A stretch of DNA of 34,628 nt from a virus. Lineage: Duplodnaviria > Heunggongvirae > Uroviricota > Caudoviricetes. The notes under the pieces were generated by a model that had not been told where the DNA came from, did not search any database, and saw only the letters and a list, made by a program, of their open reading frames with translations. The translations under genes were made by a program, and so were the position numbers. Shown piece by piece: positions 10,886-15,196 of the stretch. Location of the stretch: positions 1 through 34,628 of IMG/VR virus record IMGVR_UViG_2558860472_000005. The stretch is one strand, 5' to 3'. Each line of letters starts with the position of its first letter. The stretch's first letter is position 1.

Positions 10886-11257
10886 ATGCGTGATATTCAA
10901 ATGGTTCTTGAACGTTGGGGTGCATGGGTGGCAAATAATCACGAGGATGTCACTTGGTCGTCTATTGCTGCAGGATTTAAAGGACTAATCCCTTCAAAAG
11001 TAAAATCCCGCCCGCAATGTTGTGACGATGACGCGATGATCATTTGTGGGTGTATGGCTCGCCTGAAAAAGAACAACAGCGATTTGCACGATTTATTAGT
11101 GGATTACTATGTAGGAGGTATGACATTTATGGCGCTTGCCCGTAAACATGGGCGTTCTGATTGCTGGGTTGGGCGTTTATTGCAAAAAGCGGAAGGAGTA
11201 GTTGATGGTATGTTGATAATGCTAGATATTGAATTGGAAATGGAACGTAAAATTTAG
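10886..11257 (+). CDS. Late-gene antiterminator Q-like protein
   Basis: ATG 10886 with SD GGAGA; ERWGAWV and [21 protein letters not shown] motifs resemble Q family (from memory); immediately upstream of lysis region. Confidence 0.65.
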
Positions 11258-11486
11258 TTATGTTATGAATAAATAAATGCTAATGATTTTTGTAAGATAG
11301 CTCATTTTATGTCCATAGGTGATGTATGCATTAATATGATTAATTTGTCTCCTTATAAAAATAAGATTATGTAAATAATAACAAAGGGTGACATTATTAA
11401 GTGTTGCTTTTTCTTAGTAAGTTGTTATCCTACTTAAGGTTGAATGATATTGTATCGAATAAAGTTGCTTATATAGAATTATTTTT

Positions 11487-12014
11487 ATGTTATGGCTTAT
11501 TGAGTTAGTTAATAGGATGATTGAATCAATGCTTTCAAATGTAATTTTAAGTGGAGCTATGTCCACGTTATTGGCTGCATTTCTAATTTTTGTGTTTAAG
11601 GAGTATATAAAAAGGCCACCTAATTTTTCAGGGGTGTTTGAGATCGAGTGTAAAACGCTAAAATCATCATATAATTCATATGTAAACCTAACTACATTCT
11701 ATACATTAGTGTTGATTTGTGATAATAACACTATAGAAGGACATATTGAAAAAATAAAAGATATCGAAAATGATGGGTATGAAAGAAAATATATTGGCGT
11801 GCATCGCAATATTGGCGATGTCAATGGTGTAATTAAAAGAAATTACTTAAGACCTAACCATGCTTCGTTGAATATAAAAATGCATGGTGATAAGAGGGAT
11901 TATACTATTATGCTATATTTTAAGAAGGTGAATACGAAAAATATGAAAGGAACTTTTTTATCTACTGCTGCAGATTCTTCTGGAGATGTTAAGTGGCAGC
12001 GAAAAAATTTTTAA
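11487..12014 (+). CDS. Hypothetical membrane-anchored protein (AT-rich cargo, first gene of pair)
   Basis: 175 aa; N-terminal TM helix (VILSGAMSTLLAAFLIFVF); very AT-rich; 22-nt overlap with the next gene; no family recognised. Confidence 0.5.
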   Translation: MLWLIELVNRMIESMLSNVILSGAMSTLLAAFLIFVFKEYIKRPPNFSGVFEIECKTLKSSYNSYVNLTTFYTLVLICDNNTIEGHIEKIKDIENDGYERKYIGVHRNIGDVNGVIKRNYLRPNHASLNIKMHGDKRDYTIMLYFKKVNTKNMKGTFLSTAADSSGDVKWQRKNF

Positions 12015-12637
12015 TTTATTTACTGTCGTTGCCATATTTAATAATGGCTTCGATTATCATAAAGCTTAAAGTTAAAAGTATAATTGATGATTATGAGAAA
12101 TGTACTACTTATATTTACTGTAACTCGAAGAAATATAATAACATTTCTCCTGTTATGATTGATATATTAAGGTTAGCAGAGGATCATCGACAATTATTGC
12201 ATAGAGGGATTGACCCCATTGCAATCATTAGAACTTTTTATCTGAGGATATTTAAAAATATACACCAAGGAGCGAGCACTATAGAACAGCAGTTTGTGAG
12301 AACTATAACTAAAAGATACGAAAAAACAATACGTAGAAAGATAAGAGAGCAGATATTGGCTATATTGATTAGAAATGTATCAACTCCAGATGATATATGT
12401 AAGTGTTATCTTTCTTGTTGTTACTATGGCTATGGAACTTATGGGATAGATAATCTTTTAAAAAAGAAACAAAATATCAGTGATTTTGATATTGTTGCAA
12501 TGATTAAATATCCATTCAGGGGAGAAGTTGTTTCAGTTACAGAGGAACGATTTAAACATAGGTCGCTCTATCTTTCCACTTTATATAAATTAAATGCACA
12601 AAGGGATATGATTTTTTTGCGAAAATATAGTGGGTGA
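11993..12637 (+). CDS. GT51 (peptidoglycan glycosyltransferase/transglycosylase)-like domain protein, membrane-anchored
   Basis: 214 aa from GTG; hydrophobic N-terminus; four GT51 motifs in order and native-like spacing: EDHRQLLHRGID, GASTIEQQ, RRKIREQ, YLSCCYYGYGTYG; both putative catalytic Glu present. Confidence 0.7.
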   Translation: MAAKKFLIYLLSLPYLIMASIIIKLKVKSIIDDYEKCTTYIYCNSKKYNNISPVMIDILRLAEDHRQLLHRGIDPIAIIRTFYLRIFKNIHQGASTIEQQFVRTITKRYEKTIRRKIREQILAILIRNVSTPDDICKCYLSCCYYGYGTYGIDNLLKKKQNISDFDIVAMIKYPFRGEVVSVTEERFKHRSLYLSTLYKLNAQRDMIFLRKYSG

Positions 12638-12834
12638 TTATGTTAAGTGTATTTTATTATGTGTCAAAAAGTTTAGTCATCTCTGCTTAATGTATAATCG
12701 TGAATGTTTTTATTCAGATTTTATGCATGTCAAGTTGATGAGTGCCGTCGACATAAGATATGGGGATAATGAATAGTTTACAATCGTAAATAATAGAATA
12801 TCCTGTTAAAAGTGGTTACTTCTCCACGCAGCTT

Positions 12835-12865
12835 AAACCCGCCGTCGAGCGGGTTTTGTCGTTTC
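12835..12865 (+). terminator. Rho-independent terminator upstream of holin (tR-prime-like)
   Basis: Stem AAACCCGC / GCGGGTTT with 6-nt loop followed by a T-rich tract; about 145 bp upstream of the holin start. Confidence 0.45.
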
Positions 12866-13008
12866 TGGGTCTGGGGATTCCTTGGTCCTAGCCTATCCCG
12901 CAGTTATCCATTAACTCGGCTTCTTTGACGTTTCCGCTTCTGATTTGCGGTACATGATGTTTCCTCAATTTGCACCTGCTGTATCAGCGAGGTGAGAGAT
13001 AACTACAA

Positions 13009-13335
13009 ATGCCTCATAACCCAAATACCTGGCTGGAGTTGGTCCAGAGCTGGTGGCGTGGAGACACACCGCTGGGCGCAGTGATTATGTCGATCGTTAT
13101 GGCTGGTTTACGTATTGCCTATTTTGGCGGCGGTGGCGGATGGAAACGAAAAACACTCGAAATTTTGCTCTGTGGCGCTCTGACGCTGACATTTGCATCC
13201 GCTCTTGAGTATGTCGGATGGCCTAAATCACTTTCTGTTGCCATTGGTGGTGGTGTTGGGCTGATCGGTGTCGATGCTATTCGTGGGGCAGCAATGCGAG
13301 TAATCGGTAACAAATTTGGTAGCTCGAAGGAGTAA
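13009..13335 (+). CDS. S: Holin (lambda S family)
   Basis: 108 aa; three hydrophobic segments and charged C-terminus; directly upstream of an R-like endolysin. Confidence 0.85.
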   Translation: MPHNPNTWLELVQSWWRGDTPLGAVIMSIVMAGLRIAYFGGGGGWKRKTLEILLCGALTLTFASALEYVGWPKSLSVAIGGGVGLIGVDAIRGAAMRVIGNKFGSSKE

Positions 13336-14332: not shown

Positions 14333-15196
14333 ATGGAAAGAGGTGTGGTATTTAGTGCATGCGAATTACTTAAAACCGAGGATGGAAAAGGCATCCGTAC
14401 AGGTAAATGGATTAGTCAATTAGAAATAAACTATCTATGTCTTTATTGGGATAAACTAGTTTCACCCACTAATAATATTATACATACAGCATTAAATAAC
14501 GAGGATGAATTAGAAAAATGTGGATTGCTAACCAGACCGGTATATAGACATCATGGTTGTTTTGATGGCCAATATATGGCGGATTTTTATGCTGAAACTC
14601 ATGCCAAAACAATAGATATACTTAGGCATGCGGATTCTTCTGTCGATTGGCGCATGCATTTTTTAAGTGACCAAATAAACTTGGTGCCTGAATTATCTAG
14701 AACCTCAGAAGTGATACGTTTTGAGCTAGCAAATTTATTACCCGTTCCCACAGAAGATGTGCACCTACATGATATTCTTGATTTCAAGGAAAGAAGAAAA
14801 CCTGAATTAATCGCTTTACATGAATATCTTGATGAGCTTTACTTGGAAATAAAACGTTCTGGTGATATCAATCTTCAGAAAGCAAAAGCTCTTTCTAATC
14901 TTAAACAAGCAATAAAGGATATCGAACGCTTAAATTGTGAAGTGTGGAAAAGTCCAATAAAATTTAGCATCTCTACTTCTTTTGAGTTCGATTTTTCACA
15001 AATATTTAGTCTGGCGGGAACTGTTTTATCTATGTCAGTAGATTATCCTTATAATGTTATTGGAGGGGTAAGTAGTTTGGCTTGTTTTTTGGGAGGATGC
15101 ATAAAAATAAAGCCGCAATTTCAACAAGTGTTATCATTAGGTAATGATAAATTAGTTTACATAAGCAAAGGAAAATCGGAGGGTATTATTTCCTGA
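14333..15196 (+). CDS. Hypothetical protein (AT-rich cargo between lysis and packaging modules)
   Basis: 287 aa; AT-rich; hydrophobic C-terminal segment (FSLAGTVLSMSV...GGVSSLACFLGG); no family recognised. Confidence 0.5.
   Translation: MERGVVFSACELLKTEDGKGIRTGKWISQLEINYLCLYWDKLVSPTNNIIHTALNNEDELEKCGLLTRPVYRHHGCFDGQYMADFYAETHAKTIDILRHADSSVDWRMHFLSDQINLVPELSRTSEVIRFELANLLPVPTEDVHLHDILDFKERRKPELIALHEYLDELYLEIKRSGDINLQKAKALSNLKQAIKDIERLNCEVWKSPIKFSISTSFEFDFSQIFSLAGTVLSMSVDYPYNVIGGVSSLACFLGGCIKIKPQFQQVLSLGNDKLVYISKGKSEGIIS

Follow-up and report, generated by a model that had tools for sequence, protein, structure and literature searches.

Why should a prophage carry, just ahead of its lysis genes, a gene for an apparent peptidoglycan glycosyltransferase paired with a gene for a small membrane protein? 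The question is raised by a lambdoid (SfII/e14-like) Escherichia coli prophage, IMG/VR virus record IMGVR_UViG_2558860472_000005, whose positions 1 to 34,628 make up the 34,628-nucleotide stretch analysed here (the window). The two genes, called here orfA (11487..12014, 175 residues) and orfB (11993..12637, 214 residues, GTG start), occupy an AT-rich insert between gene Q and the holin gene, and lie on the plus strand, as do all features of the insert and of the segment that follows it described below. In a carrier E. coli genome they were labelled by PGAP as 'hypothetical protein' and 'transglycosylase domain-containing protein', respectively. The best explanation of the data is that the pair forms a self-contained, horizontally mobile two-gene membrane module, carried as cargo in a variable slot of the prophage and not as part of its lysis cassette. 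As to function, the module is tentatively read, with confidence that stops short of probable, as an anti-phage system of the abortive-infection type that would follow, by analogy, the logic of an enzyme coupled to a ligand-gated transmembrane-barrel effector.

The enzyme was characterised through orfB. An earlier note, made from the nucleotide sequence, had described ordered motifs of glycosyltransferase family GT51 with native-like spacing and both catalytic Glu residues, and this description was borne out. The orfB product matched Pfam Transgly (PF00912) with an E value of 1.6e-23 and a score of 83.4 bits (cutoff 27) over residues 46-154, the alignment covering only profile positions 17-126 of 178, with a divergent C-terminal third; the same domain was present in all 102 orfB homologues. 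In a phmmer comparison against PDB sequences, residues 51-154 aligned nearly without gaps to PBP1a glycosyltransferase domains, with E63 and E119 coinciding with the catalytic Glu residues of motifs 1 and 3, respectively. Motif 1 (E63-D-H-R-x3-H-x-G-x-D74; 12179..12214) aligned to the ED motif of PBP1a and contains the first catalytic Glu, motif 2 (G93-A-S-T-I-E-Q-Q100; 12269..12292) carries a subfamily-specific Glu in place of the usual Thr, and motif 3 (R115-K-I-R-E119; 12335..12349) contains the second catalytic Glu. The spacing of these motifs was fixed in the 102 homologues, at 30 residues for motifs 1 to 2 and 22 for motifs 2 to 3. Structure prediction, which the note had also proposed, gave an AlphaFold2 model with the GT51 fold and a mean predicted local distance difference test score (pLDDT) of 92.3; when it was searched against the PDB with Foldseek, the top matches were the Aquifex PBP1a glycosyltransferase domain (3nb6, E 5.4e-6, and 2oqo) and S. 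aureus MtgA (3vmt), each with probability 1.0 and with TM-scores of 0.55-0.67.

Conservation was assessed in an alignment of 68 sequences sharing 29-68% identity with orfB. E63, D64, R66, H70, G72, D74, R80, G93, S95, T96, I97, Q99, Q100, R103, R115, K116, E119, G146, P174 and R190 were invariant (68/68). E98, the Glu that replaces the motif 2 Thr, was kept in at least 90% of them, and the motif 1 Phe of the GT51 consensus (EDxxFxxHxG) was not conserved in the family. The invariance of the active site across the 68 sequences indicates purifying selection upon it, and catalysis, or at least substrate binding, has very likely been retained. As the active site is complete and strongly conserved, it is most likely that orfB binds and turns over lipid II. 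Two other identities were considered and set aside. Orthology to MtgA was rejected, the TIGR02070 equivalog model scoring 44.9 bits against a cutoff of 182.65, and PBP1a-family NCBIfam models scored orfB higher (83.6 bits). A lytic transglycosylase (SLT) identity was likewise rejected, since PF00912 is a synthase family and the fold matches were to synthases.

The protein is thus a compact monofunctional GT51 of a distinct subfamily. Like MtgA and the N-terminal domains of class A penicillin-binding proteins, it has motifs 1-3, the motif 4 Gly and the motif 5 Arg, a predicted fold that superposes on those of Aquifex PBP1a and S. aureus MtgA, and an N-terminal hydrophobic helix (residues 6-24; 12008..12064; Kyte-Doolittle 19-mer mean 2.07) with a conserved central Pro. 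This helix was of transmembrane grade in 75% of the 68 relatives and degenerate in the fusion proteins described below. Unlike those enzymes, members of the orfB subfamily bear the signatures EDHR and STIEQQ (Glu for Thr), are mobile and rare and not core genes, and are always encoded beside, or fused to, a transmembrane beta-barrel protein; their fused and helix-less variants are, in addition, predicted to lie on the cytoplasmic side.

That barrel protein is the product of orfA. The earlier note had called it a single-pass membrane protein of unknown fold. The single transmembrane helix was found at residues 19-37 (VILSGAMSTLLAAFLIFVF, followed by KEYIKR; 11541..11597; Kyte-Doolittle 19-mer mean 2.4), but the fold can now be predicted: the AlphaFold2 model (pLDDT 92.7) comprises this helix and an eight-stranded beta-barrel formed by residues 49-171 (11631..11999). 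A C-terminal soluble eight-stranded barrel resembling the receptor domain of Cap15 is thus present in the predicted model of orfA. Cap15 of CBASS and OptE of Panoptes are S-2TMbeta proteins, ligand-gated membrane disruptors that are each paired with one enzyme gene (PMC12657218). For the orfA family itself, 312 clusters were recovered by a word-indexed profile search and 896 representatives at 50% identity by a full hidden Markov model (HMM) search. No match to orfA was found in Pfam (E<=1), PHROG, PADLOC (E<=1) or NCBIfam, and the UniRef names of two relatives were the sole pointer at the sequence level to the S-2TMbeta family. The lone match between the orfA family and the PDB in a profile search was to a ribosomal chain and was discarded as chance.

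The start of orfA deserves separate comment. Its codons 1-16 are unlike those of its relatives, in which the N-terminal helix is a different one of 23 residues, and homology to relatives at the DNA level begins only at 11536. Because the first 16 codons are unconserved and DNA homology begins at that position, the true start may be the ATG at 11529, which is preceded by AGGA at 11514-11517 and would give a product of 161 residues.

The association of the two proteins was consistent. At every two-gene locus examined, a GT51 gene was located directly downstream of the orfA-family gene, usually overlapping it, and this was seen in E. coli, Yersinia (with an orfA counterpart 36% identical to orfA), Enterobacter, Leclercia, Pseudomonas syringae, Rheinheimera, Thiomicrospira and Allochromatium, in sponge-associated metagenome-assembled genomes (MAGs) and in a Chitinophagaceae MAG (Bacteroidota). 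In four clusters at 50% identity, the barrel and Transgly domains were joined in one chain. A further cluster (P0259, 383 residues) carried an orfA-type transmembrane helix and barrel fused to Amidase_3, an N-acetylmuramoyl-L-alanine amidase domain; it was found on two independent metagenome contigs (L035 3336-4487 and L036 244-1395), with no GT51 gene adjoining. In a distant branch (L043 1405-3039; also L044 and L045), the barrel protein was accompanied by a GT51 protein of 544 residues, in which about 370 N-terminal residues, matched by no Pfam family, are followed by a GT51 domain whose motif 3 Glu is replaced by Arg; open reading frames (ORFs) of 87 and 76 residues flank this pair, and IS21 and HipA genes adjoin it.

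Two side observations concern these pairs. One Rheinheimera MAG contig (L020 and L021) carries two module copies about 27 kb apart in different neighbourhoods; their coordinates coincide, each gene has the same HMM score in both, and a beta-lactamase-family (PF00144) gene follows one of them. The 175-residue orfA sequence is also listed in the protein cluster of orfB at 90% identity, probably an artefact that arose when overlapping or wrongly called genes were clustered.

On which side of the membrane the two domains lie is central to any proposal of function. Among 83 relatives of orfA, Lys and Arg residues flanking the transmembrane helix averaged 0.29 on the N-terminal side and 2.86 on the C-terminal side, and a minority of relatives, the longer variants, possess an N-terminal signal peptide or an extra transmembrane helix upstream of the conserved one. 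The charge bias and these variants together point to a cytoplasmic barrel, and an N-out/C-in orientation, as in Cap15, is therefore predicted for orfA from sequence. In the orfB family, the window's orfB included, the positive charges are on the N-terminal side of the helix, which predicts an N-in, ordinary periplasmic GT51. However, no transmembrane segment separates barrel from enzyme in two of the barrel-GT51 fusions (P0343, P0374) or in the fusion to an amidase (P0259), and the 544-residue GT51 partner has neither a transmembrane helix nor a signal peptide (best Kyte-Doolittle 19-mer 1.22). From these fusions and the helix-less variant, it would seem that the GT51 domain is on the cytoplasmic side in some members of the family at least. 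The GT51 domains are also Cys-rich with no bias towards even numbers (37 odd and 30 even), which weakly favours a reducing compartment. We know of no GT51 enzyme that acts at the cytoplasmic face; GT51 and Amidase_3 proteins are normally periplasmic wall enzymes.

These topological data are equally the material for the chief rival proposal, in which the roles are exchanged, the transmembrane-barrel protein serving as sensor or regulator and the GT51 or Amidase_3 domain as a weapon at the cytoplasmic face. Lipid II would then be polymerised or stripped where it is made, the undecaprenyl carrier would be trapped, wall synthesis would stop and the infected cell would die or arrest. The predicted cytoplasmic barrel, the absence of a membrane segment between barrel and enzyme in P0343, P0374 and P0259, the 544-residue partner lacking any export or membrane signal and, weakly, the Cys counts are all consistent with such an arrangement. 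So are the strict conservation of the catalytic residues and the finding that the swappable part of the module is the enzyme (small GT51, 544-residue GT51 protein or Amidase_3), always one acting on MurNAc-peptide substrates. We nevertheless think it unlikely that the enzyme is the effector. Besides the lack of any precedent known to us for GT51 activity at that face, orfB and 75% of its relatives have a transmembrane-grade N-terminal helix with N-side positive charges, like periplasmic MtgA and penicillin-binding proteins; the Glu-to-Arg change in motif 3 of the 544-residue protein would be odd in a catalytic weapon; and in the Cap15 and OptE precedents the lethal activity resides in the transmembrane-barrel protein.

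The distribution of the module was examined next to these structural features. Cassette DNA at 99.9% identity was present in 3/5,426 complete E. coli genomes, and the exact orfB protein was found on 560 contigs. No orfA homologue was found in sequenced phage isolates (50,697 records), and in IMG/VR the module was located on 4 contigs only, at prophage ends near tail-fibre genes; on these counts, the possibility that it is a typical phage gene was rejected. Most copies instead lie outside prophages, in defence islands, in small islets and on a plasmid, an IncF plasmid among the locations recorded; in Yersinia the module sits at the integrase end of a P2-like prophage. One copy (L012) lies alongside a type I restriction-modification (RM) system, a type IV-like HNH gene and ParDE, and another (L017) lies 2.6 kb from a PARIS-like AriA ATPase gene, with an AbiJ-domain gene adjoining. 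Among 92 neighbours at 8 further loci, PADLOC matches comprised type IIG RM, type II RM, Vsr, NucC, AriA and PDC-S32. At one locus the module is inserted within a split MalK-like gene together with an AAA ATPase and IS66, and in Allochromatium vinosum CP001896 (L029 8001-9187) the module and a DUF4160 gene stand between the genes for the A and B subunits of a V-type ATPase. As judged from raw neighbour counts, the pattern resembles that of conflict systems.

Such a distribution must also be set against a non-immune role, in which an accessory periplasmic wall synthase, served by a membrane protein of its own, would remodel or strengthen peptidoglycan and owe its spread on mobile elements to that activity. 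The cell might gain tolerance of envelope stress or antibiotics, or superinfection exclusion through a wall altered at the point of phage entry. All that a working monofunctional GT51 needs is indeed present in orfB, including the N-in anchor signal, and the periplasm is where both GT51 and Amidase_3 normally function. Some neighbourhoods hold ordinary metabolic genes, one module copy adjoins a beta-lactamase-family gene, and prophage slots of this kind also hold non-defence morons such as the porin gene nmpC. Three independent indications (charge bias, N-terminal variants and fold analogy) nonetheless place the barrel in the cytoplasm, where fusions without an intervening transmembrane segment would put the GT51 domain too; moreover, a conflict system would better account for the very patchy distribution among complete E. 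coli genomes, the AT-rich composition and the presence of RM, PARIS and Abi genes nearby. A wall-synthase role accordingly appears improbable.

The same sporadic, mobile distribution, combined with two small overlapping genes under translational coupling, would also suit an addiction module of the toxin-antitoxin (TA) kind that stabilises its mobile element, with orfA as a small membrane toxin and orfB as its neutraliser, or the reverse. TA genes were indeed frequent neighbours (ParDE, HigBA-like Gp49/HTH_37, HipA and DUF4160). However, stable fusions into one polypeptide are atypical of TA pairs, and a mere antitoxin would need no strictly conserved, full glycosyltransferase active site. We regard an addiction role as very unlikely on this evidence, while TA and abortive-infection roles can coexist.

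The reading that is tentatively preferred, an abortive-infection-type system, can be outlined as follows. The GT51 enzyme would process a MurNAc-peptide precursor, lipid II, and the orfA barrel would read this substrate or its product; when infection perturbs the state of lipid II, the transmembrane-barrel protein would damage the inner membrane. The logic would be that of a small-molecule enzyme with a transmembrane beta-barrel effector, as in the pairs CD-NTase and Cap15 of CBASS and OptS and OptE of Panoptes. In favour of this reading are the obligate pairing, the fusions, the selection on the active site, the predicted cytoplasmic barrel, the mobile and defence-associated context, and the precedent of Cap15 and OptE. 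The defence function, the ligand gating, the choice of which partner kills and the membrane face at which the GT51 domain would work are inferred.

A number of observations weigh against it. Six relatives of orfA matched no Pfam family, S_2TMBeta included, at E<=10, and a profile of 83 relatives retrieved no Cap15 chain from the PDB at E<=10. The barrel fold is a common one, de novo designed barrels, PagL and avidins scoring similarly in the fold comparison. Because the tests at the sequence level failed and the fold is common, the resemblance between the orfA model and Cap15 is taken as architectural and as no proof of homology. Most members of the orfA family have one transmembrane helix, unlike the two-pass S-2TMbeta proteins, and no nucleotide cyclase (CD-NTase or mCpol) adjoined orfA-family genes at the loci examined. 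PADLOC-DB 2.0.0 returned no known or candidate defence model for orfA or orfB at E<=1. Several loci had ordinary neighbours only, and the neighbour tallies are raw counts. The charge rule applied to orfB would put enzyme and barrel across the membrane from each other. The cassette might also be expressed only on induction, as it is co-oriented with Q and no terminator is predicted before it. Finally, the reading was built from sequence and predicted structures.

The module also differs from the S-2TMbeta systems in other respects. Unlike Cap15 and OptE, orfA has no sequence-model match in Pfam, in PADLOC or in the PDB profile search; its partner is a peptidoglycan glycosyltransferase or, rarely, an amidase, and not a nucleotide cyclase; and the gene order is barrel first, enzyme second. 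Both parts resemble known families, while their combination matches no catalogued system. The suggestion in the earlier note that the system was undescribed has held up to this extent: no PADLOC, PHROG or NCBIfam system matched it, and no description of the module was found in the literature, most subscription journals lying outside the coverage of that search.

The position of the cassette beside the lysis genes was then considered. Q (PF06530, E 2.9e-51) ends at 11257 and the lambda-family holin gene (PF05106) starts at 13009, so that the insert does occupy the cargo site between Q and S to which it had been assigned. The GC content was 0.26-0.32 in all 400-nucleotide windows from 11200 to 12800 and 0.46-0.59 in the flanks, in agreement with the AT-richness originally remarked upon. 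The extent given earlier, 11258-12637, was right in its start but not in its end, since the AT-rich insert continues to about 12773. Its left end is an AT-rich leader from the Q stop codon to orfA (11258..11486; GC 0.26-0.29) with no homology to the relatives of the cassette, and its right end is an AT-rich trailer (12638..12773; GC about 0.30). A scan of the leader for intrinsic terminators between Q and orfA predicted none, and a scan for promoters upstream of orfA passed no consensus promoter; a promoter may lie within the leader. Within the module, which is 1.2 kb in length, orfA and orfB overlap by 22 nucleotides in different frames, the same overlap being present in relatives, and a GGAG Shine-Dalgarno sequence for orfB (11982..11985) lies in the 3' end of orfA, 7 nucleotides before the GTG at 11993. 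The two genes are thus arranged as a translationally coupled pair, as the note had stated.

Homology to other prophages picks up again at 12774, where a conserved segment upstream of the holin gene begins (12774..12857). With its promoter-like hexamers and a terminator-like hairpin (12835-12856), this segment is the probable late promoter region; it forms the boundary of the cargo slot and lies outside the module. A query of the segment plus the holin gene matched 2,788/5,426 E. coli genomes, and the segment alone matched lambda-like phages, DLP12 and CFT073, and SfII in part (window 12799-12900). Unrelated cargo was found in the same slot of other prophages (loci L031, L032, L047, L048 and L049): the nmpC porin gene, between quuD and essD, in DLP12; an ompC-like porin gene in CFT073; three hypothetical genes in YPE12; a nucleoid-associated protein pair in FT130; and SfII_49/50 in phage SfII, of which SfII_50 corresponds to the PADLOC candidate PDC-M53A (E 2e-32). 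The cassette resembles these cargos, such as nmpC of DLP12, in insertion site, foreign base composition and variable content. It differs from them in being a two-gene module of enzyme and barrel that also exists independently of phages, and in being co-oriented with the phage genes, the other cargos seen being on the opposite strand.

It had been suggested that the phage might tune lysis with these proteins, timing the action of holin and endolysin through peptidoglycan that is capped or remodelled or through lipid II that is sequestered. The position between Q and S, the orientation with the phage transcript and the absence of a predicted terminator between Q and orfA would all accord with a role of this kind. 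Set against them, the conserved promoter/terminator segment stands between the cassette and the holin gene, and the slot so bounded holds unrelated cargo in other prophages; none of the 50,697 phage isolate records contains an orfA homologue; and most family members occur in non-phage contexts. In the prophage of E. coli FDAARGOS_1277, moreover, Q is a pseudogene and IS3 has inserted, yet the cassette is intact. A lysis-linked function would be surprising in the extreme, and modulation of lysis timing in particular is unlikely because the module is found mostly in non-prophage settings and is carried by no sequenced phage isolate. Membership of the late or lysis operon was rejected, given where the conserved segment lies and how the cargo varies in other prophages. 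The proximity to the lysis genes is positional only and incidental, as the probable late promoter follows the cassette, the slot has variable cargo and the module is found elsewhere beside RM, PARIS-like and Abi genes. The Cap15-like partner shifts the interpretation to a module of the immune-effector type, and of the functions proposed in the earlier note, exclusion or defence and interference with lipid II remain viable.

Two further observations were made around the slot. In the FDAARGOS_1277 prophage (L001 3826-5039 and 14629-15000), the IS3 lies near the integrase gene and the Q pseudogene has an internal stop; the two-gene cassette there is 99.9% identical to that of the window. In the window itself, a second low-GC cargo gene (14333-15196; GC 0.32-0.36) lies just after an Rz-like lysis gene. 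Its 287-residue product belongs to DUF6236 (Pfam E 1.8e-31) and to PHROG 23128 (unknown function), with no PADLOC or NCBIfam match; the same position is occupied by iss, on the opposite strand, in the FDAARGOS_1277 and YPE12 prophages, and by bor in DLP12.

Whatever its function, the module extends the known contents of the Q-to-late-promoter slot in lambdoid prophages by one defined cargo, and its compact GT51 (about 150 catalytic residues) would suit work on enzymology and on inhibitors. Its small size (1.2 kb) and E. coli origin make the claims directly testable. To our knowledge, the only roles described for GT51 enzymes are those of housekeeping wall polymerase at the outer face and of antibiotic target. 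It is conceivable, if rather doubtful, that the family described here faces the cytoplasm, tethered or fused to a Cap15-like barrel, and forms with it an immune module in which lipid II is read or consumed at its site of synthesis. If that were so, no earlier GT51 would be known to face the cytoplasm and no earlier defence system to be built on a peptidoglycan synthase, and an abortive-infection system would have the lipid II pool as its signal or its target. More generally, a mobile, conflict-associated GT51 subfamily obligately tied to an immune-effector-like membrane protein would extend the logic of an enzyme plus a ligand-gated transmembrane barrel, as in CBASS and Panoptes, from nucleotides to cell-wall chemistry, and infected cells might then be watching over, or sabotaging, their own supply of lipid II.

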